From: Bugula neritina
Taxonomy: Eukaryota; Animalia; Bryozoa
Length of the DNA stretch: 64,000 bases
Assembly (NCBI GenBank): GCA_964035545.1
Contig: OZ037769.1
Span: 11,314,633-11,378,632, forward strand
Reading direction: 5' to 3'
Shown: one piece after another, positions 3,446 to 54,117 of the stretch
Layout of the letters: each line of letters opens with the position of its first letter
Position numbering within the stretch: position 1 is the first letter of the stretch
The notes under the pieces: generated by a model
Seen by the model: only the letters and a program-made list of their open reading frames with translations
Databases searched by the model: none
Told to the model about the DNA's origin: nothing
Position numbers and translations under genes: made by a program

Positions 3446-6400
3446 ATGAATGAAGTAGATGAGAATGGGTGGGCCCATATCCATCATGCCTCAAAGAAAG
3501 GTTCAACACAACATAATTTGTAGAAATAATGGAACTTCTGCATCTTTCGATGATTGTAGCGTTGTTATTATTTTCACACTATGGTTTAATGATTTGTTTT
3601 ACAGTAATTTACATTGCAGCTAAGGCATAAAGACATTAAAGGTTACATGATCTTGTGTGAAAATGAAATTCTTTAAACCTGGTAATTGAAGCAGACAAAG
3701 CGCTATAGTCAGTTTATTGTAATCACATTTTTCTAACTAGGATATTTCAAATCTGTGGAGAAGTTTGTAAAGAACACAGAGGGGCAGTTGGAGTTTGAGA
3801 CTCAAGATGAGTTGCATGAAACTCCACTTCTGATTTCTGCCAGAGCTGGAATAGCCAACATTGAGACCATAAACATCCTGATTGAGTGCGGAGGTAAGCC
3901 AATAACACAACAACACATCAGATGTTTTACTGCTCAAACTGCATTTAATTGTAAATTATTATATATTAAGTGGAGTTTAGAGCTGTTCATACTTGGCTAA
4001 AAGTCTCGGCTTTGTGTTGGCGAGGAAAGAAACTTGTTGAAGTAGTAACCATACACAGAGTAAATTTCTTATATAAAGCCCACTGATCTGCAGTAATACT
4101 TTTATGTTTATAAGATTATACTTTGTTTTGACTAAATGACAAGTGAGTCTGCTTATTACTGCATGTTGGTATGACATGCACTTATTCAAAATACATATCG
4201 AATTGTAAATATGAAAATGGGAATACTTGTTTATTATGTTTTCTCTATATATGTTACATTCTGTATAAAATTTTATAGAGGTATGTTATTTTTTATCTTT
4301 AGCTAATCTGATTGCGAAGAACACATTAAACCATGGCATTGTGGAGATATGCTGCATGGAGGGTCACACCGAGCTGTTGGAACACTTTATTAAGTTGGCA
4401 CATGAGGACGTTCCTGTCTGGAAGCACATGCTGAAGCTTGTCACTTCTACTTCTGAAGAGGAAGCTGCAGCTGCTGGCAACTGTCTTGCTATTTTGACTA
4501 AACCAGGTAAGTGTCAGCAAGTGCTGCTTATCACTGCGCTTCCATGCTTCAATGGATCTGTACAGAATGCTCTTACGATGGATTTGTGGTTGCAGTTGCA
4601 TTAACCTATGGTTGTGGTTTCCTTCGATTGACACTGTTCCCACACATCCAATACAAAATCCATTCACATACTTCTAAGCATGGGGACATAATGTATAGCT
4701 GCTTATAGTTATCAGTTTAAAACTTTTACATTGTTTATTCGGTTGTATTTATGTTTGTTTCCAGATGAAGATGGCAACGTGAATGATTACTGGAAAGTTG
4801 TGTTTGATCACCAAGCTGTACCAATACTGACAAAGGTGGTGAAAAGTGAAATAGGTGATAAAGCCAAAGCAAATGCTCTTCAATGCATCATTAACATCCT
4901 CCCACAGATGGAAGTAAAAGATCAGCTTGTTGCTAATGGTGGCATTGACACATTTGTCAGACACTTGACCAAATCAAAAACCGGATTTATTATTCAAAAA
5001 ACATCGACTGCAATATCCATTTTGTGTACAGTGACAAAATATGCAGACCAAGCTGCTGGAAAGGGTGTTTTACCAGCTTTAGTTAACATTCTGAACAATC
5101 CATATGAACCTGAAGTTCTTGACGAATCAGTCAACGCGATTGGAGTGGTGTGCGAGTTGAGTGAACCACGACAGACATTGTTCTACAACACAGCCAACAG
5201 TATCGACTTTCTTTGTAATTTGCTGAAAGAGGCGATAAACCCACAACTAATACTTGGTCTGCACAAATGCATCTGTCGTATTACTAGACACCATGAAGTA
5301 AATCAGAATGCTATTGCAGACGTACAAGACATAGTTTTTACAATCATAGCATTTTGCTCTTCCAAAAACAAAGACATACAGTTGAGTGCTGTTGATGCTA
5401 TCCATATGCTGGCAGACGGCAACAATTACACGCAACAGATTCTCATCCAAGAAGGTGCTATTAATCCGCTAATGTTGTTGCTCAGAAGAAGCAAGAACCA
5501 AAATGTACAAGAGAAAACGGCCAGCTCACTGTGGGCACTGGCAGGAAGTGGTATAGAAGAACGCCGAGCAATGGCCGCTAGAATGGAGGTGAATCAGCTG
5601 ATTGAATTTCTGAGCTCTTTGTCGGAGATTCTCAAATATATTGGATCAGAAGGTTTGGGTGTTTTAGCACAAGGCGCTCACAATCGGCAAGATGAAATCG
5701 CAAATGCAAATGGCGTTTATCCTCTAGTAAGAATATTAAAAGAGCCTAAAGAGTATCTCGTACTGAGTGCCATCAGGAGTCTGCGTCACCTTTGTGTGTC
5801 GGTTGGCTACGCCCCTCATAAGAGAAACCAATGCACTACAGCGCAGGCTAGAGGAGTCAAGTATCTCATTGCATTGATGACCCTCAGCAAGAGTGAACTG
5901 ATACAAGTAGAGGCGGCCTTGACCTTAGCTAGTGCTGCTTTAGGTATGTATGACATAGTCTATAATCACTGTATTGCTGAGAAGCTCAAAACTTCTCTAT
6001 GTGACTGCAACTGGAGCATTGCAAAAACCCTTATAACAGATACATCAACATTATGTTAGTGTTCTTTATCTAAAGAAAGCTTAATCAACGCCAAAAGTAT
6101 ATAATTATATAAAACAACTTATAACGTTGGTCATCTGTAACTTGTAGGTTGGTAAATATTATTTTTATGGGCACGATTCTAATAGCTCGAAAATACAGTT
6201 TAAAATACGTGCACAAACACATTTTACAGCTGAAATGCAAGAGTACAGGATTAAAAAAAAATTTATGTCAAGTAAAATGAAAAATTTGAGTTAATGCATG
6301 AAATTATGAAACATTGATAAATTATTTTGGCGTTTAAAAATGTTATATAAATTTTTCTTTTGAACTAACAAATACTCAACTATTCTCGTTGTATTACAGC

Positions 6401-26082: not shown

Positions 26083-26434
26083 TGTAGTAATTTGTGCAAT
26101 TACTGAGCGTGAGTTATTTACTTGCGTATAGTTAGCTGGTTATTCTGTTATCAATTACTAGGGTAGCTGTCGAGTAATTATATTTATTATCCACAATAAA
26201 GCATAAACCAAACATCACATCAAATTATCCTATACAAGAGTCAACTACTAACACATGTTACTACTACAAGCCTCCGCTTACAACAACGTGATATAATGTT
26301 AATAACCCGGGAAGTGTCACGTGACTCGGAAGCATATCTTCCGGAGCTGCTAATTGGTTGCTACATAAGAGTCTAAGTATTCCAAGAATAGGGAGAGGGC
26401 GATTCCTGTATTTGTACTTGCACTACTCACTACA
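26083..26434 (-). repeat. 3' LTR of element 1
   Basis: Direct repeat of 30995-31346, adjacent to the PPT. Confidence 0.96.
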
Positions 26435-26724
26435 CCGTCCCCCCCAGCAGAAAGCCCTACTTTCTGATAACACAATAAAAAAACATAATGAAAAACCATA
26501 CAATAATCCAAAAAGGAAATATTCATAAGTAAACCCACAAAGAGTAAGAAAAGAAATAGTTAAACACGACAACGTTTACATTAGAAGACAACAGGGTGAT
26601 CGATCACACACATCTAGTCAGCTATTAAGAGAGAGGGTGCTTACCAGCACGCGGGCCAATGTCGGAGCGCTCGTCACATCCTAAACGAGCTATAGCTCAA
26701 CGAAGGTGCCTACCCCAGGCATTC

Positions 26725-27778
26725 TCATTGGTTGGACTCTGCTTCTTGTAGCGACCGTGCTCTGTGTCGAGCCTGTCGGGCCCGTAGCCGCCTCTTCAGT
26801 CGTCCCACTGAGTCTTTCAACTGGTATAGACCTGTCGTCGTATCCAGCAAGTCAGGGGCAAGTTGTGTGAACTCGGCTTGCAGTCTTAGAAGCCGCTCTT
26901 CTACGTTAGCCAGCTGGCTAGGCCTTGGTGGGGTTATAGGGGTCTCCGTTATACGGGATATGGTTGTTTCTTCTACTTCTGGGGTGTTGCTGGGGTTGAC
27001 GGGGGTAGGAGGTGGGCCCTGAACCATAGGGGACTTATGGCGGGCAGATAGTAACAGTACGTGAAACCCTGACGTTAGTGCGGCCAGGGTAATAGCCTTC
27101 CTGATGACTGGCTTGATGGCATCCAGGTATAGGGGGAAACTGTCTTCATCAACAGTGTGGTTCTCTCCGGCGAAGCAGCTTAGCTTATGTACTGTCACGG
27201 GATACGGGTAGACGTCGTGGAACCCGCAGGGACAGAAGTGGAGTAGGAAATGGGCATCTACATGTAAACGCAAGGAGCGGTGCGACGGGCACTCCTCAAA
27301 GCAGACCTGGCAGGTTCGGTGTGGTCCACTGGGTCCCCAGGCTTCTTTAATTCTCCTCTCTGTCGTGGGTGACACCCAACGGTGCCGTCGGCGGAGTACT
27401 ACTGGTATGCCATTCTCCATTACAGGCTCTTCTTCCATAGACAGAGAGGTTGGCTGGTCCCGTGACCGGGAGGTGGTCACTCGAGTGTGATCTGAAAGAG
27501 TAGCAGTGTTAAAGATTATACACTGAGACACCGTCGGCGTGTACAGCCTGACCGGTACTCTGTTCAGTTACACTCGTGAGATTCAGGCTAATGAATAGTT
27601 GATGGAGAACACACTCGCTATGACAGATTATTTAAAATCAAAGTCGACGTGTATTCCCACCACTGTTTATCATTATCGAATCTCCAGCTTAGCTAGTGTA
27701 GCTAAGCTGACTGATGCAGTCTAGTTATCGTACCAAAAACATAATTAACTCACCCTTCGATCCAGAATAGTAAGACAT
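26725..27778 (-). CDS. ORF3 of element 1: spliced tandem zinc-finger/coiled-coil protein (~263 aa)
   Basis: Exon 1 at 27778-27754 (MSYYSGSK, donor G|GTGAGT), intron 27753-27492 (..TACTCTTTCAG), exon 2 at 27491-26725 in frame. C-x2-C-x12-H-x3-H plus C-x-C-x12-H-x3-C, and a C-terminal heptad/basic helix. Confidence 0.8.
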
Positions 27779-27801
27779 TTTGGAATGAAAGTGGTAACTG
27801 A

Positions 27802-30060
27802 TTACTGTTTACTGGCACGTCTACTCTCGACTGCATCAACATAGGAAAAGACCGGACAGCGTGGTTGTGAAACGTGACTAGGGCTTTTCACTTCCAGCGG
27901 ATGAATCTCGTGTGAGATTCCGCCGAGGCAAAAGTTGAGATTCTCGTGGTGATCACAACTCCCACGGCTCTTTGCCTGTTTTCCCATGCGAGGCCTCTCT
28001 AGACTTTTGTTACTGCCGCTTATACCGCGGTCACGTACACAGTCTCTGAGACACGCTGGAAGTTGCCTAGTGTGTGGTGCTGGTCCTATGTTGGCACCTC
28101 CTTGCGGAGCCCCTCCCACGGGGGGTTTTTGCACTTCCGGACCTGTCTCTGGTTCCGGAAGTGGTGATGATGGCAGGCTTGACGTTGGGGGCGGTGGGCG
28201 CACTTTCAAGGACGGAAGTGGCCTTTCTCGCCTCGCCAAGTCTTCCTGACGTGTCATGGAGGTGTTTCCGGCCAGGTTGACAGTCTCCGCCTGCCGAGAC
28301 CTTCTCGCACAATGCGTCTGCCGCCCCGCTTCACCAGGGAGACGGCTATGCTTGTTGGTCTGGCAGACTTTGCACCGTCTCACTCTGCGTCGGATATCCC
28401 GTTCCATGTTAGGCCAGTACCACCGGAGTTGTAGCTTGGTGACCACCCCTTGGACTCCTCCGTGAGTCTCCTCGTGGGTGTCTTGTATCAACTTCCGGCG
28501 GATGGCAACTGGGCAGACAACCCTCTTCCTGGCTGGCTGTCCGCTGTTGGCGGCCAAGGTCATGGTTAGCAGACCATCTGGCCCGACCCGCAGAGAGCTC
28601 CAACGTTGACAGTACAGCCGTAACTCGGCGCATCCCTGTCGCCGTTGTGTACTACTGGGTCGTCGCCCCTCCTGTTTCGCTCGGTACACGTCGGCTACCA
28701 CCCCAGGAAGGCATTCCTGGAGCTTCGGCAGCTCCCTAACGTTACCAGCCCATACAGGTTTGGCGCGGAGGCTCTGGGCAGCCTCCGGGGGCGTGTCAGC
28801 CCTCTGTTGAAGTGGCTGAGCAGGGGCGGTCCTCGCCGCCCGTGGTACCTCACGGCAGCCTGCTCTATTTAGGCGGGCTCCGTGGTTTGTGTGGCTGAAC
28901 GCCTCACTGTACCCATGTGGCAACCTAGCCCTAGCCTGGCGCTTCCCGTTGCCTGTGCAGCCACGCGTCCCTGGAGGAGGGGAGGCGTGGGTTGGGACGG
29001 TCCTCCGCCCTCGAGGCGGGCTCTGCTGAGGACCTTCCGTCGTAGCTCCCGACGACGGCCCAATGGCTTCCTCCTGGACAGGATGGAAGCGACCCAGCAT
29101 GGATCTGGGTGGTAGGTCTACTGTCTCTGAGAAGGGGTTGACACACTGCACTGAGATCTCTCCTTGCCCCGTGAGCCGGCTAAAACTACGGGCAAGTTGG
29201 ACTCTCGAGTGCGTACTTTCGACAACTCCCAACTTAGAGGTTTGGCCACCGTCTACCTTGCAGCGGACGGTAGCCCGGGAGTGGCCTGGTATAGTACAGC
29301 TCCGTACTACCTGTACTGCTCCCGCTAGAGGACGACCAAACTTATCGACACAAGCGAGCTCCTTGTCGCCCATGATTATCGCAGATTTACTGAAATCGAT
29401 GCGACAACCGTGTCGTTGTAAGAATGGCATCCCGAGGATAGCATCCTCGTTGAGCTGCCCGACGATGAACGTCTCTTGGATGGCCTGGCTACGGACGTAA
29501 CCAGTTAGCTCAATAATGCCGTAGAAGGGAATGCACGACCCGTCTGCCAAGGTGCCGTGATCCCCCTCGTACGGTGCCAACCTGTCCTTGACCTTAGCGC
29601 TGAGGGTGTCAAAGAACTGACGGCTAAGGAGGTTGGTGGTGCAGCCGGAGTCCAGGAGGAAGTTGGCAGGCTTGCCGGCTAACTTCCCTGGCAGGAAGTA
29701 GCTACTTCCGTGCGGCTGCAGTTGAGTGTGCCGTGGTTGCACCTCCCTCGCTGTGGGTCGAGGGGTCCACGGTTGGCGGCGACTATTGACCAGCTGCCGA
29801 GGTTGGGGCGGTACGCCTTGCGGCGCTTGTACCGTTTCCCTCGCAGGCTCTGTGGTCAACCGTCTGCCGGCTCCGTGTTGGTGCCGGAGTGGCGTAGAGG
29901 ACCCAGGCGGCGAGTGGCTTGAGCCTACTTGCCGCGGGGGTCGCCACTTCACAGCATCTCCGCGCGGCGCCCAGCGGGGCGACAGACGCGCGGGCCTCCC
30001 TGGGTGATTTACAGACGGCCCGCAGGAGGTGGGAACATCTGCGGGCCGGGGTAGTTTAAC
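27802..30060 (-). CDS. Internally deleted Pol of element 1 (aspartic protease + integrase HHCC zinc-binding domain; no RT, RNase H or integrase core), in the -1 frame to gag
   Basis: FLLDSGCTTN protease motif, ILGMPFL, and HEETHGG..RWYWPNM..CKVC are present. No YxDD, no TDAS, no D,D35E. Confidence 0.88.
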   Translation of the reverse strand, partial: VKLPRPADVPTSCGPSVNHPGRPARLSPRWAPRGDAVKWRPPRQVGSSHSPPGSSTPLRHQHGAGRRLTTEPARETVQAPQGVPPQPRQLVNSRRQPWTPRPTAREVQPRHTQLQPHGSSYFLPGKLAGKPANFLLDSGCTTNLLSRQFFDTLSAKVKDRLAPYEGDHGTLADGSCIPFYGIIELTGYVRSQAIQETFIVGQLNEDAILGMPFLQRHGCRIDFSKSAIIMGDKELACVDKFGRPLAGAVQVVRSCTIPGHSRATVRCKVDGGQTSKLGVVESTHSRVQLARSFSRLTGQGEISVQCVNPFSETVDLPPRSMLGRFHPVQEEAIGPSSGATTEGPQQSPPRGRRTVPTHASPPPGTRGCTGNGKRQARARLPHGYSEAFSHTNHGARLNRAGCREVPRAARTAPAQPLQQRADTPPEAAQSLRAKPVWAGNVRELPKLQECLPGVVADVYRAKQEGRRPSSTQRRQGCAELRLYCQRWSSLRVGPDGLLTMTLAANSGQPARKRVVCPVAIRRKLIQDTHEETHGGVQGVVTKLQLRWYWPNMERDIRRRVRRCKVCQTNKHSRLPGEAGRQTHCARRSRQAETVNLAGNTSMTRQEDLARRERPLPSLKVRPPPPTSSLPSSPLPEPETGPEVQKPPVGGAPQGGANIGPAPHTRQLPACLRDCVRDRGISGSNKSLERPRMGKQAKSRGSCDHHENLNFCLGGISHEIHPLEVKSPSHVSQPRCPVFSYVDAVESRRASKQ

Positions 30061-30959
30061 CCTGGTGGGAGTTGAGGGCAGTTTCTCTGGAAATGTCCTG
30101 GCCTTCCGCATTCCCAGCAGAAGTGGTGCCCCATGTCTGGTGATTGTACCTGCGGCCCGCAAGGCTCACGGGCAGTATCTACCTGGCTTGGGGAGGCTAA
30201 TGTGGTGACCAGTTTATCTAGCATGTCAGTCATCTGTGAGATTTTTGACACTAGTGACATCTGGTTCACATTAGCCACCGCGGAGGGTTCCGCATTTACT
30301 TCGGTGTGAGCAGTAGAGTGCTCCGTGGTCACCTGGCGGGAGGCCACGCGGTTGCGGTGCATATGAGTCGCCAAGAGATAGGCTTCTCCCACCGCAAGTG
30401 CATCTTCGACTGTGGTGACTCCCCTCGCTTGGAGTTGATGGTGGAGCCCCAAGTCGTTGATGGACTGCACGAAGGCATCATAGGTATACCTCTCACGGTG
30501 TACCGGAGGCAGATCGCGGAATGCGATCTGCGCTAATGGGTACACCGTGGCAGCGTGCTCTTCTAGTGACGTGTGAGGATCACGCCGCATCCTCTGTAGA
30601 CGGGCCCGCGCATCTATGGGAGAGATGCCAAAACGGGCCCGCAGGGAAGCAAAGATTCCGTCTATGTCAGGTCCAGCTCCGTACGGCTTAGCTTTGCCCG
30701 TCAGCGCCATCCTGAGCTTTAGCAACGCCACCCTTGGCGGCCATTCTGCAATCTCCATCACATCTTGGAATTCTTGAATAAACTGCTCCACTGCTTCTTC
30801 GCCAGTGAAGGTGGGCGCCTTCAGCCGGTATCTATCTTCACCATGCCCTCTAAGAATTCTCACTTCTTCATCTAACACCACTGGTTCCACAGGTATATCA
30901 ACATTATCTCTCTCACCTTCATTCAGTGGAATGGGTAGCTCCGTGCCGTCTTCTGCCAT
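30009..30959 (-). CDS. gag: Gag of element 1
   Basis: First ATG after the PBS. Capsid-like YRLKAPTFTGEEAVEQFIQEF and CCHC knuckle CWECGRPGHFQRNC. Homologous to 32485-33354. Confidence 0.92.
   Translation of the reverse strand: MAEDGTELPIPLNEGERDNVDIPVEPVVLDEEVRILRGHGEDRYRLKAPTFTGEEAVEQFIQEFQDVMEIAEWPPRVALLKLRMALTGKAKPYGAGPDIDGIFASLRARFGISPIDARARLQRMRRDPHTSLEEHAATVYPLAQIAFRDLPPVHRERYTYDAFVQSINDLGLHHQLQARGVTTVEDALAVGEAYLLATHMHRNRVASRQVTTEHSTAHTEVNAEPSAVANVNQMSLVSKISQMTDMLDKLVTTLASPSQVDTAREPCGPQVQSPDMGHHFCWECGRPGHFQRNCPQLPPGLNYPGPQMFPPPAGRL
30016..30060 (-). promoter_or_regulatory. -1 ribosomal frameshift signal (gag-pro), element 1
   Basis: G_TTA_AAC, 5-nt spacer, 10-bp stem CGGCCCGCAG/CTGCGGGCCG. 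The downstream ORF is in the -1 frame. Confidence 0.8.
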
Positions 30960-30975
30960 GACTGCTATACGCAAG

Positions 30976-30993
30976 ATCCCACCGCTGCCACCA
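30976..30993 (-). promoter_or_regulatory. Primer-binding site, tRNA-Leu
   Basis: TGGTGGCAGCGGTGGGAT is complementary to the 3' end of metazoan tRNA-Leu(AAG/UAG) (..AUCCCACCGCUGCCA-CCA) and identical to the PBS of element 2. Confidence 0.85.
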
Positions 30994-30994
30994 C

Positions 30995-31346
30995 TGTAGT
31001 AATTTGTGCAATTACTGAGCGTGAGTTATTTACTTGCGTATAGTTAGCTGGTTATTCTGTTATCAATTACTAGGGTAGCTGTCGAGTAATTATATTTATT
31101 ATCCACAATAAAGCATAAACCAAACATCACATCAAATTATCCTATACAAGAGTCAACTACTAACACATGTTACTACTACAAGCCTCCGCTTACAACAACG
31201 TGATATAATGTTAATAACCCGGGAAGTGTCACGTGACTCGGAAGCATATCTTCCGGAGCTGCTAATTGGTTGCTACATAAGAGTCTAAGTATTCCAAGAA
31301 TAGGGAGAGGGCGATTCCTGTATTTGTACTTGCACTACTCACTACA
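30995..31346 (-). repeat. 5' LTR of element 1
   Basis: Direct repeat of 26083-26434, followed after 1 nt by the PBS. Confidence 0.96.
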
Positions 31347-32018
31347 CTATGTAAGATAGTTACTATAATTATTATGAATAATAAATACATGCAGAAAATG
31401 TTAAATTCTAGCACAATCGTATTGCCATCATGTTATATCAATGGTGATTGTATAAATAATGCATTAACAAATTGCATAAGCATACCGCGAATCAGAAAAA
31501 AAGCTGTAACATTGCAATACCATAGTTGAAAAGACTCCATCTTAGTAACAGCATTGCGTCTTATAAGTCTGTGATACAGAGTTCTAAGTTGCTCTTGTAG
31601 AGTCGAAACACTAAGATGAAGCAAATGCAAGCTCTCTCTCAACCTTAAATGCAAATATTCACCTTTGATTAAATAGACTGTAGTCACAGCTTACTGTTTA
31701 TAACTGCCATTTCTTCAAGCTTTTTTTAGCTGGCTGATTACAGCAACAGGCTTTTTGAAAAAGTCTGCCACAGGATGAAAATTTTTACACAAATCTGTGA
31801 ACCTTTAGTCTGCAATATTGTTGTTAGTTGGTTAGTTAGTTGTTAACTAATTTATATATGACACAATTCTTTGCTTATAGCTACTTGGCAGCAAGTTATG
31901 GGTAAATTGATAAAAAACATGTTACTTTTATTTACAAAACAACTTATTTGTTATAAGCTGCTTATTCAAAATTAATACAATACAAGTCAATTAACCTCCT
32001 TATACACGCAATGTGTAT

Positions 32019-32429
32019 TGTGATAGATTTTAGTAGTGCAATTCCTATTAGATTAATCGAAAAGGTTTACTCTATACTGTTTTATGTATCTTGTGAGTTC
32101 GACACTGTCGGAGTGTAACTATGGACAGTAGTGGCACCATTAGTAGCCACCAATCAGGACAGTGACACTAATTGATAGCAGGTGGAGCTAGCTACTCGTA
32201 GTTGCAGTGCGCTGAGTAGCTAGCCGGCAGAGCAGCTTGGGACTTCATTTAGAACAGTTGTGTATTAAAGCTCACTAATTATGTAACCGTTTTCTATTCA
32301 TGCTAGCAGTAAATAACCTTCTTGTATTTGTGTAAATAATAAAAGTATCTTATCATAAACAACCTGTCGCAGTGGCTTTGATTAAGTAGACCCACAAATA
32401 ATAATAGTGAACTGGCAAAATTCACTACA
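32019..32429 (+). repeat. 5' LTR of element 2
   Basis: Direct repeat of 39271-39681; contains CCAAT and AATAAA. Confidence 0.96.
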
Positions 32430-32430
32430 C

Positions 32431-32448
32431 TGGTGGCAGCGGTGGGAT
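32431..32448 (+). promoter_or_regulatory. Primer-binding site, tRNA-Leu
   Basis: TGGTGGCAGCGGTGGGAT, 1 nt after the LTR end. Confidence 0.85.
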
Positions 32449-32484
32449 CTCACTTAATACAAATGCCCCTAGTCAGGGAGTAAG

Positions 32485-33354
32485 ATGGCCGACGAAGTCG
32501 TCGACGCGCCCCGACAGGAGCCAGCAGCAAAGGAGGAGGATCACATAGGCGGCCCAGCGCTGCCTATGGACAGGTACCACTTGCGGGCTCCCACCTTCTC
32601 TGGAGAGGAAGATGTGGAGCAATTCATCACTGAGTTCAGTGATGTGGCGGACATCTGCGGATGGCCGAATAGGGTTACTCTGATCCAGCTGCGGTTGTGT
32701 CTGACAGGGCCGGCTAAACCCTATGGGATAAGCCAGAATGTCGGTGACATATTTGAAGCAATACGAGCTAGGTTTGGATTAACCGCTCGAGATGCTCGCG
32801 TGCAACTGCAGAGTCTTAGGAGAAATCCTAAGACCAATCTGCGAGAGCACGCTACCGTAGTCGAACGACTGGCACAAGTTGCTTACAGCGACTTGCCTGC
32901 CGATGGTCGACAGAGCCTAGCACTGGATGCATTCCTCCAGTCTATTAACAACCTCGGTCTTAAACAGCATCTGCTGGTGGCCGAAGTTGAGACTATGGAG
33001 AGAGCTCTAAGGCTTGGGAATGCCTATTTCCAAGCCGACAGTGCAAGTCGACCTGGCGCGACAGTACAGCAAGTCGGGGCAGACGACGTGTCGACGTCGT
33101 CAACGAAGACAGCTGTACAAGTCGCAGCGGCAGCAGCAGACGAATCTAGCTTAACCACGAGCTTGATTCGAGAACTGCTCGCCGAGTTCAGGCAACTGCG
33201 CCAGCAGGCGACAGCCAAGAGACCCAAGAGGTCGTCGGTAGCTGTCGCCGACAGGCGCGGCCCCGTATGCTGGGGCTGTGGTAGCGGTGGGCACTTCTTA
33301 CGAAGTTGCCCCCGCGGCAGTGGGAGGCGGTTAAACAGCGACGGCCCACGGTAA
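32485..33354 (+). CDS. gag: Gag of element 2
   Basis: YHLRAPTFSGEEDVEQFITEF and CCHC knuckle CWGCGSGGHFLRSC. Confidence 0.93.
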   Translation: MADEVVDAPRQEPAAKEEDHIGGPALPMDRYHLRAPTFSGEEDVEQFITEFSDVADICGWPNRVTLIQLRLCLTGPAKPYGISQNVGDIFEAIRARFGLTARDARVQLQSLRRNPKTNLREHATVVERLAQVAYSDLPADGRQSLALDAFLQSINNLGLKQHLLVAEVETMERALRLGNAYFQADSASRPGATVQQVGADDVSTSSTKTAVQVAAAAADESSLTTSLIRELLAEFRQLRQQATAKRPKRSSVAVADRRGPVCWGCGSGGHFLRSCPRGSGRRLNSDGPR

Positions 33355-33373
33355 CTTCCGCCTACCGTGGGCC
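33330..33373 (+). promoter_or_regulatory. -1 ribosomal frameshift signal (gag-pol), element 2
   Basis: G_TTA_AAC, 6-nt spacer, 11-bp stem GGCCCACGGTA/TACCGTGGGCC. pol is in the -1 frame. Confidence 0.8.
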
Positions 33374-36300
33374 CGAGTTTAACCCCCCAAGGCAAAGGCT
33401 ACGGCCCCCACCCCATCGGGTGAGGAGGCCGCCTTCGCCAGAGTGGCAAGTCTCAAGGAGAGTGAGTCGGCCGCAAGGCCCACCAATACCTCCGGCTTGG
33501 GCACTCAAAAACCGCTTTGAAGGTTTGCTTGATGAGGGAGTGAACGACGAATGGGAGCACAACAGAGATTTTCCTCGGTTGCCCACACGAGCATCAGTCC
33601 GAGAATTCACTCGGCCGCCCGTGTGTGAGCGAGACCGAGACGTACCCTGCCCGCCCATGCAACGTCGACGACCCCCTCGCAACCGAAAAGCACAGGTGCA
33701 TCCCCAATTCCATGCACATGAGGTGTCGCCTCAAGAGACAAATCGCTCAGTGAGCGCCCAGCCATATGGAAGCAGCTATTTCCTCCCCGGCAAAATTGCT
33801 GGTAAAGCTGCCACATTCCTGTTGGATACTGGGTGTACCACAAATCTACTGAGTCGGCGTCTCTTCGACACTCTCAGTGCCAAGGACAGGGCTAGCCTAG
33901 AACCATATGAAGGGGAACACGGCACGTTGGCGGACGGGTCGTGTATTCCTTTCTATGGGGTAATCCAGTTGACTGGTAGAGTCCGTGATCAGATGATCAG
34001 TGAGACCTTCATCGTCAGTCAACTCAAGGAGGATGCCATCTTGGGCATGCCATTTCTGAAGCGACACAGGTGCTACATCGACTTTAGCAAGTCGGCAGTA
34101 GTGATGGCGGGGCGTGAGCTGGCCTGTGTCGACCGATTTGGCCGACCTTTGGTGGGGGGAGTGCAGGTGGTACAGCGCTGTACTGTACCTGGGCGCTCCC
34201 GGGCTACAGTTCGCTGCAGAGTGAACTGTAGGGAGATCTCCGAACTCGGAGTGGTGGAAGGTGCACTGGGGGGCGTCCAGCTCGCTAACAGTTTGAATAG
34301 ACTGGATGAGCGGAGGGAGTTCCTGGTCCAGTGCGTAAACCCTTTCACGGAGCCGGTAGAATTACCGGCTGGGTCTCTAGTAGGGAAGTTCCACTCCGTG
34401 CAAGAGGAGGATGTAGGGCCCGCGCTGGAAACAGCGGACGGTGCCCGGGGACCCGCCGGTTAGGTCCTGAGAAGGAGAGAGAAGTGAGCCGTCAGGTGCA
34501 AGACCTTCTGAACCGGGACCTGATTGAGCCAGGCCATGGGGCCTGGAGTTCTCCAGTCGTCCTGGTTCGGAAAAAGGATGGTAGCTGGAGGTTTTGCGTT
34601 GACTATCGCAGGCTGAACAGCGTGACCATCCAGGACGCTTACCCTCTCCCGAGGATCGATGAGTCGCTCGATGCCTTAGCTGGTAGCAAGTTCTTCAGCA
34701 CGTTGGACTTGTTAAGCGGGTATTGGCAGGTGCCCCTGAGTCCTGAAGCACAGGACAAGGCCGCGTTTATAACGCGGGATGGGCTCTGGAAATGGAAGAT
34801 GTTGCCATTCGGACTTACGTCCGCACCAGCCACCTTCCAGCGACTCATGGAGCAGGTCCTGAGTGGACTGCACTGGAAGACCTTGCTCATATATCTCGAT
34901 GATGTCATCGTCATCTCCCCCGACTTCGACACACATGTCAGTCGACTCAGGGAGGTGTTCGACAGACTCCGAGCTGCTAACCTGAAGCTGAAGCCCTCGA
35001 AGTGTGCATTACTGCAACGCGAGGTCAAGTACCTGGGCCATGTAGTTGGTCGAGACGGGGTCGCCACCGACCCCGAGAAGGTACGGGCCGTGAGGGACTG
35101 GGCCGTTCCTGTCGACCTCTCTGAATTGCGGGCGTTCCTGGGGCTGGTTGGGTACTATCGTCAGTACATACCAGACTTTGCAGGAATTGCACAGCCGTTA
35201 AATCGGCTGACCGCGAAGGGGGTGCGATGGCAGTGGACGCAGGCTGAGCAGAAGGCATTTGACCACCTGAAGGATCGCCTGGTGGAGGCACCCATCTTGG
35301 CGTATCCTGACCCTGCGAAGGAGTACATTTTGGATACTGATGCCAGTAACCATAATGTGGGGGCGGTGCTATCACAGGTCCAAGATGGTCGCGAGGTGGT
35401 GGTGGCTTACTATAGCAAGGCCCTGTCGGCGCCTGAGAAGAACTACTGTACAACCAGGAGGGAACTCTTGGCAGTAGTCAAGGCGGTCAAACACTTTAGA
35501 CCATATCTATATGGGCGCACATTCCGGCTTCGGACGGATCATGCGTCCCTGATATGGCTGTGTCGACGGGCAGAACCATCCAGCCAAGTGGCGCGCTGGC
35601 TAGAGATCCTGGCAGAGTTTTCTTATCGGATCGAGCATCGACCCGGTAAGAAACACGGTAATGCAGATGGACTCAGCCGCCGCCAGGCAGATGGGTGTAA
35701 GCAATGCCAGAATATCGAGCGCAGGGACGGTGGACCCCCTCGCTCGGACGTCGAAGCGCAGTTAGGGAAAGCGGGTGTGTACAGCTGGGAAGAAGGGCAA
35801 CTCCTGTCCGAATCACCCAACAAGGCTGTTAACAACCTTCACGCAAACCCCACGTTGCTTCGGAACGTCAGGGAGCTATGTCGGCTCCAGTCCACGCTAC
35901 CAGGAGTGGTAGCTGACCTAGTCCGGGCCAAGAAGGAGGGACGGCGGCCGAGTGAGGCCGAACAGCGAGTGAAGAGTACTGAGTTTAAGTACTTCTGTGA
36001 CCGCTGGGACTCCCTAAGGTTCAACAGCGATGGGCTGCTAACGATCACGTTGGCAGTCGGCACCAATCGCAATGAACGAGAGAGGGTAGTCTGCCCGTCA
36101 GCTCTGCGGCGGGAGTTGATCTGGGACACCCATAAGCAAGCTCACGCAGGAGCTAGCCGGGTGATCAGGTGTCTTCAACTCCAGTGGTTTTGGCCCGGTA
36201 TGACCTGGGATGTCCGACTCCGGGTGCGGAAGTGCGAGGTGTGCCAAGCTAGCAAGCATGGCCGCCCCACTGAGACCGCAGGGAGGCGTCGCCTCCATGC

Positions 36301-37588
36301 CGGTCGTCCGTGGCAGGTGGTTGCTGTCGATCTGGTAGGCCCCATGCCCACTACAGCGAGAGGTAATAACTGGATACTGGTATTAACTGACCATTTCACG
36401 CGGTGGGCTGATGCACTGGCTATTCCAGATGCGTCGGCCCCCTCGGTGGCCAGAGCTCTGGATCAACAGGTGTTCTGCTATTTCGGCTTGCCGGAGCAGA
36501 TACACTCTGACCAGGGCGCCCAGTTTCAGTCGCAACTTATGAGCGATCTCTGTAGAATGTGGGGGGTAAACCAGAGTCGGACGACCCCGTATCACCCGCA
36601 AGGGAACGGGGTCGTGGAGCGGAACAACCGAATGCTAGGGGACTCTCTGAGAAGCCTGCTTATCGGTAGGAGCCAGGAAGAGTGGGACTTGGTGTTGCCG
36701 CAGATCATGCGAGCGTACCGTAGTACCCCTCACTCCAGTACACTGGAGACACCTAATTTTCTCATGCTGGGGAGAGAAACAAGGGTTCCTGAGCACGTAA
36801 CCTATCATGTTCCGAATCCAGAAAGCAATGTCCACGACTACGTGGACAAGCTCGTAAAACGCATGGGGACGGCTCACGAGGTGCTACGTGAGCAGCAGTG
36901 GCAGGTCAGGAGTGGTGATTCTGACGACCCACCTTTATACAAGGTGGGGGACTGGGTCTGGATGACCAGTCATCGCCGCAGGCGCGGACAGGCAGCCAAG
37001 TTGCAGCCGAAGTTCGTAGGTCCCTACTGCGTAATTGAGGTAATGCCAAATCATACATACAAAGTGGAACGGTCTGGACAAGTGTCGGTCCAGAACGAGG
37101 CACGGCTAAAACCTCACTGGGCAAGTCCTGATGCGGCAGGTCAAGCACCTCCTCTCTTAGAGCCAGCTAGGCGCCCTCCTATGAGGGGGCGACCCATGGC
37201 ATATCGAGAGATTGAGGAGATACTGCCAGATCAGGACGGGGCGGCTGATGCGCCAGCCGACCAGCCCCAACCTCCTCCACCCCAGGAAGAGGAGGTCGAC
37301 ACACCTGAAGACCTGTCGGAGCCGGCCCCACCACCTGTGGAGCCGGTCGACAGGCCCATCGTTCCGGATGAGATGGAAATTCCTCAGGATACTGAGGGAG
37401 AGGCAGCTGGGGGAGGGCCACCCGTACTGGTGGACCCCCCCGTACTGGCGACACCACCCGTGGTGGAAGAGTCGCCAGTCGCAGCAAACTCCCCGGTACC
37501 GTTGGACCGTAGCCAACGTACCAGGGCGCCACCATCTTATTTAAAAGACTTCTTGTGTGACTTGGTCGACATGCACAGTATTCTGTAG
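33330..37588 (+). pseudogene. pol: Pol of element 2 (PR, RT, RNase H, integrase), broken by a frameshifting deletion near 34452
   Basis: The PR frame (LLDTGCT) stops at 34463. A different frame carries RT (WSSPVVLV, FCVDYR, LPFGL, YLDD), RH (DTDAS, RELLA, TDH, NADGLSR), IN (HHCC, VDLVGP, SDQG, VERNN) and a GPY/F motif (KFVGPY). Confidence 0.88.
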
Positions 37589-37828
37589 CATGGCGACATT
37601 CACAAAGGAGTCTGGGGGAGCGAGGTAATTGATAGCAGGCGACCCAGTGGCGGATTGAATAGGTCAGCCGGGGGTCAGCAGAGCGTAGCCAAATCACAGC
37701 GTATAGGGTGTTACATAAGCACTCTAGCTGTGAGCGCTCTTTTCAATTACAGCTAGCAAACAGGCAGCACGTCTTTTGCAATAAATAATTTGGCTATCTA
37801 CGAGCCCTAAGAAAGCAGCAGCATCATT

Positions 37829-39025
37829 ATGTCTAATGCAGCAACTGTTTTGGGGGGTAAGTCTACTAGGAATTCTATAATAATTAATTAGAATTTATTC
37901 TGGTAGCGACAGCAGTCTCACTTTGTCATAATGATAAAGTTGAAACTCCTGACAGCGAATGATATTGATAATTAGAGTGGGACAGTCGACTCAGCTGATT
38001 ACACGATCAGTGAGTGACAGTGAGACTCGATTATTTAATATTGTTTGGAACGGGAGTCCCACGCATAGAGTGTAATTAAATTTAAATACTCTATTGCAGG
38101 TGAGACTGAGCCTGTATCCGACGAGATACAGGCATTACTTGACACGCCTACGACTAACTGGGACAGCATGTCAGAAGCAGGGGTAGACATGCTGTCCGAC
38201 ATACATTTAGCAACATTTACGGACTCCCCGACACACACTGCGATGCAAATTGATACCAACGACTTGACTGATGACTTGACTGTAGCCAAGGACACTACTC
38301 TAGCACTACTAAGAGCCTTACTGGGACGGACTAACTGGACGACTCGACGGACTCGAACATTGATAGAAGCAATAGTAGGGACGGACGACAATAGACAATG
38401 CACTGAATGTAGAAGAATACTATCGACTACTAGGAGACTGAGAATACACGTTCCACAACACTTTACTGTGACTTTCTGTCCCTGCGGAGTGCACCACTTC
38501 TGCAGGGACACGATACTGAGACACCAACGAACTAGAGACTGTTACGTAGGGCACTTGTATGAAGTCGACGCAGACTCTTACACGGAGTTCCGGGACCTAA
38601 TACTACCCCACGTGACTGACCCGGACCGACGACAGACTCTCCTGGACCACTTCCCCGCTACCCGACCTACAGTAGAGAGTGACTCTGATGCAGACCCCCA
38701 ACCCTCCGAAACAACGACTACCTACCCTCCAGACGTAACCACCCAACCTCTACGCGTCGTAGTAACCCGTGCTGGACGCGCTGTGACGAAGGACTCACAA
38801 CCCCCAACGACGACAATCTCCTATGTACCCCGACACACCCATAAGAAGAAGAGGGGTGCTAGCAACACACCCCGAGATGACAGCGACCCTGACCAATCCC
38901 TACTAGCCGACATTAGGAAAGTGCAACGGCGTATGGCTCGCCTCAGTAAAGAACAGAAGCGAGCAACCACCGAGCTGGCTAAGTTGCAGACCCGACTAAA
39001 GAAACGGCTGGCGAAGAAGTGCTAG
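37829..39025 (+). CDS. ORF3 of element 2: spliced tandem zinc-finger/coiled-coil protein (~317 aa)
   Basis: Exon 1 at 37829-37856 (MSNAATVLG, donor G|GTAAGT), intron 37857-38099 (..TACTCTATTGCAG), exon 2 at 38100-39025 in frame. C-x2-C-x12-H-x3-H plus C-x-C-x12-H-x5-C, KKKR, and a C-terminal coiled coil. Confidence 0.82.
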
Positions 39026-39270
39026 AGGTGCGGCCACCTACACATGTACCCCCCCCCCTTCCTGGCTAGTCAAGCAGTGTAAATAAGTGTTATGGACTAC
39101 GGCGTGAAGACTCATTTATTATACTTATGTTATCTACTCTGTATATATATTTTCTCTTGTTCAATTGTACCCTCAGTTTTGTAAAGCACTATGTTACCCT
39201 CATTATTATTCGTGTGTTACTGTCATGTAAATATTAAGTCTAGAGAGTACTTTTCGATAGGTGAGGAGAG

Positions 39271-39681
39271 TGTGATAGATTTTAGTAGTGCAATTCCTAT
39301 TAGATTAATCGAAAAGGTTTACTCTATACTGTTTTATGTATCTTGTGAGTTCGACACTGTCGGAGTGTAACTATGGACAGTAGTGGCACCATTAGTAGCC
39401 ACCAATCAGGACAGTGACACTAATTGATAGCAGGTGGAGCTAGCTACTCGTAGTTGCAGTGCGCTGAGTAGCTAGCCGGCAGAGCAGCTTGGGACTTCAT
39501 TTAGAACAGTTGTGTATTAAAGCTCACTAATTATGTAACCGTTTTCTATTCATGCTAGCAGTAAATAACCTTCTTGTATTTGTGTAAATAATAAAAGTAT
39601 CTTATCATAAACAACCTGTCGCAGTGGCTTTGATTAAGTAGACCCACAAATAATAATAGTGAACTGGCAAAATTCACTACA
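39271..39681 (+). repeat. 3' LTR of element 2
   Basis: Direct repeat of 32019-32429, preceded by the PPT. Confidence 0.96.

Positions 39682-42571: not shown

Positions 42572-54117
<11,546 letters not shown>

Follow-up and report, generated by a model that had tools for sequence, protein, structure and literature searches.

Additional open reading frames (ORFs) other than env are already known from LTR retrotransposons, and to our knowledge most of them have no assigned function. Among animals, the literature covered here offers one non-env third ORF with a demonstrated role, CERV, encoded by Cer1 of C. elegans, which exports RNA and, according to the available text of the source, is known from nematodes only (PMC10309623). 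Foamy viruses carry a regulatory gene, Tas (Bel1), before the 3' LTR, and its product binds and acts on both an internal promoter and the LTR (PMC10534306, available text). Additional ORFs of plant elements are antisense; they include GENE23 of Grande, whose product is nuclear, and the word 'zinc' has no occurrence in the available text of their description (PMC7264820). The ORF3s of bdelloid rotifers are likewise non-env ORFs of animal LTR elements and are said to be typically expressed via spliced messages; the types described there (GDSL, DEDDy, CC and TM) are enzymes or membrane and coiled-coil proteins, and 'zinc' and 'finger' are absent from the main text as available (PMC5408684). The third gene of Oikopleura Tor elements also depends on splicing from near the gag start or on an internal promoter, but, in the portion of the source available, it encodes a transmembrane Env (PMC4402516).

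Here we analyse a window of 64,000 nucleotides from the bryozoan Bugula neritina (contig OZ037769.1, positions 11,314,633 to 11,378,632) that holds two Gypsy elements, A and B, each with a third ORF (ORF3) in the sense orientation, at the place that an envelope gene would occupy. Compared by description, CERV comprises H, M and G domains with a possible C4 finger (PMC10309623, available text), whereas bryozoan ORF3 has a C2H2 finger and a CxC-H-C/H finger in tandem. The ORF3 family itself is widespread and previously uncatalogued. An earlier note on this DNA did not recognise it as a described accessory gene, and we agree: no family in Pfam or in the open literature covered matches it, though an entry may exist in Repbase, Dfam or subscription journals. 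In their available text, neither PMC6431247 nor PMC13524379, a survey of env-carrying elements including those of bryozoans, describes the family, and the latter has no occurrence of 'zinc'.

Anatomy of the two elements

Element A has the TG...CA ends, primer site, polypurine tract and target duplication of Ty3/Gypsy LTR elements (Table 1); the primer site is presumably that of tRNA-Leu. Its domains follow the Ty3/Gypsy order protease-RT-RNase H-integrase, despite a frame break that separates protease from RT. Element B encodes gag, protease and the integrase zinc finger only, and is without RT, RNase H and the integrase core. Judging by their identical LTRs and 4-bp target duplications, both are recently inserted Gypsy elements. 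They lie head to head with 672 bp between them (31346-32019). Near the gag end, at the protease overlap, each has a G-TTA-AAC site (33330-33345, plus strand, in A; about 30060-30045, minus strand, in B), which we take to resemble a -1 ribosomal frameshift heptamer. Elsewhere the window contains a host exon with armadillo repeats (4692-6059, plus strand) and, at 47462-49750, two arrays, one a long tandem array of 16-bp units and the other AT-rich and palindromic, where apparent long ORFs were rejected as repeat artefacts.

Table 1. Features of elements A and B, in positions of the window
Feature	Position	Strand	Remarks
Element A, Gypsy-type LTR retrotransposon	32019-39681	+	target duplication GTAT
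A 5' LTR	32019-32429	+	411 bp, identical to 3' LTR in sequence; tRNA-primer site next
A gag	32485-33354	+	weak CCHC knuckle match, E 0.053
A protease frame	33285-34463	+	overlaps gag end
A RT-RNase H-integrase frame	34310-37588	+	out of frame with protease
A 14-bp word	37626-37639	+	also in both A LTRs (32169, 39421)
A predicted ATG mini-exon	37829-37856	+	28 nt; phase-1 donor at 37857
A predicted GT-AG intron	37857-38099	+	phase-matched donor and acceptor
A ORF3 main exon	38100-39025	+	translation
A ORF3 folded core	38297-38671	+	both fingers at 38399-38542; predicted structure
A KKKR (residues 259-262)	38843-38854	+	candidate nuclear localisation signal, putative function
A C-terminal heptad helix (predicted coiled coil)	38912-39013	+	simple heptad scan
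A 3' LTR	39271-39681	+	polypurine tract just upstream
Element B, non-autonomous	26083-31346	-	target duplication CTAT
B LTRs	30995-31346 and 26083-26434	-	352 bp, identical
B gag start	30917-30959	-	43 nt up to phase-1 donor; predicted alternative ORF3 first exon
B predicted ATG mini-exon	27754-27778	-	25 nt, phase-1 donor
B ORF3 main exon	26725-27491	-	follows acceptor ending at 27492
B ORF3 fingers	27312-27175	-	strongly conserved C-terminal helix further on in ORF3

ORF3 as a gene

The earlier note had described a sense ORF lying after pol and before the 3' LTR of both elements, encoding divergent proteins with a common core. ORF3 is indeed present and intact in A and B, though pol is damaged in each, and the Cys/His spacings, VDxDS, Pro/Thr linker, basic C-terminal helix and, in A, KKKR are all found in the translations. 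The two proteins have 34% identity over 95 aa (E 1e-13); the DNA around ORF3 gave no significant match between A and B (best E 0.12), and a Pfam search with the whole of ORF3 A and B gave no match at E<=1. None of 1000 base shuffles of either pol-to-LTR stretch reached the length of ORF3, the longest being 216 and 215 codons.

For the interval 37700-39100, differences were taken from pooled contigs of many copies, as the best 40 of 253 listed. Thirty of these 40 fall within ORF3 A, 23 of the 30 being synonymous and 20 at third positions; the corresponding pN/pS of 0.10-0.14 (p<=3e-7) describes the best-supported listed differences only and is not a formal dN/dS. By this measure ORF3 is under purifying selection. 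In the pol comparison, 14 of 20 listed differences were synonymous. For each of the eight candidate zinc ligands, 89-100% of the homologues covering the position retain it in two unselected sets (A set of 37: 28/29, 29/29, 31/33, 34/34, 33/37, 35/37, 34/36 and 36/36; B set of 120: 84/87, 77/83, 85/95, 92/97, 94/97, 92/98, 100/101 and 113/118). Identity in the linker is 32-52%, and in the B family the tail helix is 85% conserved versus 32-43% for the linker. On this evidence we regard ORF3 as a real accessory gene that is homologous between A and B.

The claim that the gene is not env also stands. The highest 19-residue hydropathy is 0.74 in A and 1.43 in B, with no transmembrane segment, and only 9 of 159 homologues exceed 1.6. 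An envelope protein of the errantivirus F-type or of the gB-type is ruled out by the missing transmembrane anchor and the predicted zinc-finger fold.

Predicted splicing and candidate control sites

The start at 37829 proposed previously proves to be the ATG of a 28-nt mini-exon whose GTAAGT donor is in phase with an AG acceptor ending at 38099, a predicted splice. The mini-exon of B (ATG 27778) is followed by GTGAGT. Both of these donors, and a further donor after the first 43 nt of gag B, are phase 1 and match the acceptors at 38099 and 27492; in gag A, a search of the first 200 nt gave no gag-frame donor of the B type. Two proteins from our searches look like spliced products. P0018 has the eight mini-exon residues as its N-terminus and continues directly into ORF3 A-like sequence, and P0053 passes directly from a gag-B-like start to ORF3 B-like sequence; each is one example among 199 proteins, and both are known as proteins only.

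The predicted joints were not among the best 15 of 20 or 15 of 213 contig joints in six runs, none of them on record as RNA, a result that is uninformative either way. In the diverged-copy runs, contig cover was high at 37841-37887 and 38076-38122, with almost none at 38029-38075, the pattern that conserved islands at the predicted splice sites of A would give, contig depth being a rough measure. We predict that ORF3 is made from a separate spliced mRNA. Since the ATG mini-exon lies behind pol, an internal promoter is implied.

The 14-bp word of A (Table 1), common to the LTR and to the spacer behind pol, is a candidate element of both the LTR and the internal promoter; a common word as long arose in 1 of 500 shuffles, this being one of six pairs tested. 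The longest word common to LTR and spacer in B is 8 bp, and 482 of 500 shuffles had one as long. Perfect inverted repeats with 11-bp arms occur in LTR A (39439-39476) and in spacer B (27709-27685), each with AGCT in it and each matched in 0 of 100 shuffles; inverted repeats in spacer A and LTR B were not significant (10 and 46 of 100 shuffles, respectively). The two significant repeats could be DNA sites or RNA hairpins.

A tandem-finger domain

The model of the 125-residue core, built on 97 sequences, has a pLDDT of 95.1 and a pTM of 0.86; an earlier model on 20 sequences (pLDDT 55.7) was discarded. The core combines the C2H2 finger and the CxC-H-C/H finger in one predicted domain, which is followed by a basic linker and the C-terminal heptad helix. 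Finger 1 is a classical C2H2 finger (C-x2-C-x12-H-x3-H), beta-beta-alpha in the model, and its profile matches the fingers of SALL3/4 (best E 3e-6). At E<=1, zf-C2H2_4 is matched by 44 of the 97 members, with Pfam scores below the curated cut-off; the dsRNA-binding zf-C2H2_jaz is weakly matched by 8 of the 97 (best E 0.024).

Model residues ~25-81 align with DNA-bound C2H2 pairs (Kaiso, SALL4, ZBTB20 and CTCF) at an rmsd of 2.3-2.9 Å over 50-57 residues, matches that are weak (Z 3.4-3.7) and cover the fingers only. A structure search of 48,161 chains gave none at Z>=5, Foldseek against PDB and BFVD gave nothing at E<=0.001, and the Atlas, searched by features, offered no clusters other than unnamed and generic C2H2 ones. 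ASCIZ and IDD/WIP clusters are among the Atlas models closest to a Bugula relative, and TM scores for ASCIZ and the plant IDD/WIP/STOP fingers are <0.3, below the bar for naming. Tandem C2H2 pairs such as those of SALL3/4, Kaiso and ZBTB20 are alike in finger geometry and finger-1 sequence, with matches confined to the fingers, whereas the W-x-S/T strand-helix and the VD helices that flank the fingers are peculiar to the ORF3 family. The fold search of viral proteins indicated no homology between ORF3 and Tas/Bel1.

Five residues separate the fingers in 87 of 94 rows, forming a hydrophobic linker that is modelled as a strand. Finger 1 carries K/R at +2 in 80 of 93 rows and is also basic at +3. 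Position +6 of a C2H2 finger is usually a base-reading residue; in finger 1 it is V/I/L in 76 of 93 rows. Given this hydrophobic +6 and linker, any reading of DNA by the fingers may depart from the standard mode. Finger 2 has R-D at +1/+2, with D at +2 in 58 of 90 rows. This pair is missing from the B family, which would fit different targets for each family.

Counted without a shuffle control, an acidic upstream window is present in 94 of 134 members, a basic cluster in 107 of 171 and a heptad helix in 130 of 171. The N-terminal region is often acidic and is poorly conserved across members. As read from sequence, an acidic N-terminus, tandem fingers, a basic cluster and a heptad helix together are the layout of a dimeric transcription factor. 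ORF3 B has no run of four basic residues, a short, non-acidic N-terminus and a nearly neutral core (14 basic, 12 acidic).

A family in bryozoans, in elements and in annotated genes

Word-indexed searches yielded 37 out of 1631 candidates, 150 out of 964 and 34 out of 7995 that were scored. Counted at 50% identity, an exhaustive search with a profile found 358 representatives with E<=0.001, of which 133 reach 1e-10 and 43 reach 1e-30. Among the best 150 of these profile matches, at least two, P0277 and P0294, align through stretches that recur many times and represent ordinary multi-finger proteins; not every match in the weaker tail therefore belongs to the family. Distant members have W-x-S/T, a helix, CxxC...H...H, the five-residue linker, CxCG...H...C/H and VD; conservation in the 97-row alignment is partly circular, because its rows were picked largely for showing the motif. 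An organism was named in 5 of the 30 clusters looked up, in every case Bugula neritina or Watersipora subatra. No relatives were confirmed in metagenome contigs or viral contigs. A single sub-threshold match to an Rfam lncRNA was dismissed as chance.

Annotated genes of both Watersipora and Bugula contain the ORF3 domain. Three of these proteins, P0261 (Watersipora), P0336 and P0341 (both Bugula), have in common an extra N-terminal region that is absent from the other stored proteins, as expected of a host gene family. These three and P0200/P0335 are likely domesticated; the Bugula locus tags of two of them are consecutive, and two domain copies occur in each of P0200, P0210 and P0341. P0186 (Bugula), with 40% identity to ORF3 A across 216 residues, may represent a transposon copy that has been annotated.

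Outside the window, linkage to pol rests on four in-frame proteins among 348 stored. The clearest, P0340, is a single 1460-aa frame with RNase H, integrase and SH3, then the ORF3 domain and tail helix. Across 725 columns its pol part has 50.6% identity to pol A; in the finger domain the identity is 39% with A and 31% with B, and about 390 poorly conserved residues lie between the end of the pol alignment (697) and the domain (1086). The other three, P0161, P0168 and P0313, have in frame upstream of the domain a motif that we take to resemble an integrase tail. That a distant relative encodes RNase H, integrase and then the domain in a single frame indicates that the link to Gypsy is old. Selection and these pol-linked relatives bear out the earlier view of an accessory gene tied to Gypsy elements, but not an exclusive tie, since annotated host genes of bryozoans have the domain as well.

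A tree of 34 domain rows, chosen by hand from 247 (134 columns, midpoint-rooted, with long branches), divides six pol-linked rows between the two sides of its deepest supported split (97/90), and a single clade of these six is rejected (p-AU 1.7e-5). A single clade of six host-annotated rows is also rejected (p-AU 0.0013, quick tree); the 90-row tree is a quick tree only, with many open forks. These patterns suggest that the association with transposons is old and that domestication was repeated.

Discussion

Our tentative reading, quite possibly correct, is that ORF3 binds DNA and regulates the promoters of the element that encodes it, in analogy to foamy-virus Tas. The proposed role is like that of Tas in the position of the gene and in its two targets; unlike ORF3, Tas belongs to Retroviridae, and its role is demonstrated where that of ORF3 is inferred (PMC10534306, available text). 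The ORF3 message would be spliced either from the ATG mini-exon behind pol or from the gag start. The protein may then enter the nucleus via its basic cluster, pair through the C-terminal helix and bind the LTR and the internal promoter, where its acidic N-terminal region would activate transcription or protect from silencing, giving a Tas-like loop.

A targeting role agrees with the in-frame pol forms no less well than self-regulation does. ORF3 could be an integrase C-terminal module in origin or function, a tether that attaches to target DNA or chromatin and directs where the element inserts; where it is a separate gene, it would enter the integration complex in trans. We consider this unlikely, although P0340 joins RNase H, integrase, SH3 and the ORF3 domain in one frame, and the integrase-tail-like motif precedes the domain in the three further proteins. 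Chromodomain and CR modules at the integrase C-terminus have been linked to targeting (PMC11302176, available text). Counter to a tether, both elements in the window have a stop and a spacer after pol and separate splice signals for ORF3, the long poorly conserved stretch of P0340 divides its pol alignment from the domain, and an in-frame ORF is no proof of a fused protein. Moreover, element B keeps ORF3 without an integrase core.

Alternatively, ORF3 may be an RNA factor like Rev or CERV that binds unspliced genomic RNA, enables its nuclear export and balances spliced and unspliced messages, a role to which we also give a rather low probability. With internal splice sites, the element needs export of intron-containing RNA. 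CERV comes from a spliced message with gag-frame exons in common, and in the protein a Cys-rich loop is found together with a leucine zipper and KRKK (PMC10309623, available text); the counterpart here is a predicted one, the phase-matched gag donor of B together with P0053, which points to a gag-start splice. The inverted repeats, if they are RNA hairpins, and the weak zf-C2H2_jaz matches would also suit an RNA ligand. However, compared by description, the ring-forming M domain and the G domain of CERV have no counterpart in the model, and the nucleic-acid-binding fold neighbours listed are mostly DNA-bound fingers.

It is less probable still that ORF3 is a host-directed effector or protein adaptor whose fingers contact a protein of the host, for instance a silencing factor, and not nucleic acid. 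In the model the fingers are part of a larger, closed domain and their +6 and linker residues are atypical, and element-encoded suppressors of silencing are known, as in VANC (PMC6719617, available text), yet the conserved basic residues lie on the recognition helices and no partner is indicated. That ORF3 is a fragment captured from a host gene and carried along as a passenger, or a substitute for env, is highly improbable: the same domain does occur in annotated Watersipora and Bugula genes, but purifying selection, pol-linked forms on both sides of the deepest well-supported split and the rejection of one host-annotated clade largely refute a passive passenger, and the lack of a transmembrane segment speaks against an env substitute. 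An original capture from a host gene long ago is possible.

Returning to self-regulation, a fuller scenario, which is speculative and on balance doubtful, is that of a Gypsy-encoded, sequence-specific zinc-finger transcription factor, expressed from an internal promoter and engaged in Tas-like feedback. The module would alternate between fusion to the integrase tail and a separate spliced gene, and bryozoan hosts would have domesticated it more than once, giving rise to a lineage-specific family of transcription factors derived from retrotransposons.

With a transcription-factor-like layout, a confident model and candidate target sites in hand, self-regulation of a retrotransposon in the manner of complex retroviruses becomes directly testable. 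A DNA-binding switch of its own is rarely described for a Gypsy element in animals. Repeat libraries for bryozoans are said to be scarce (PMC13326412, available text), and the ORF3 domain provides a marker for annotating bryozoan repeats. If the scenario is true, zinc-finger genes have passed from transposons to their hosts.
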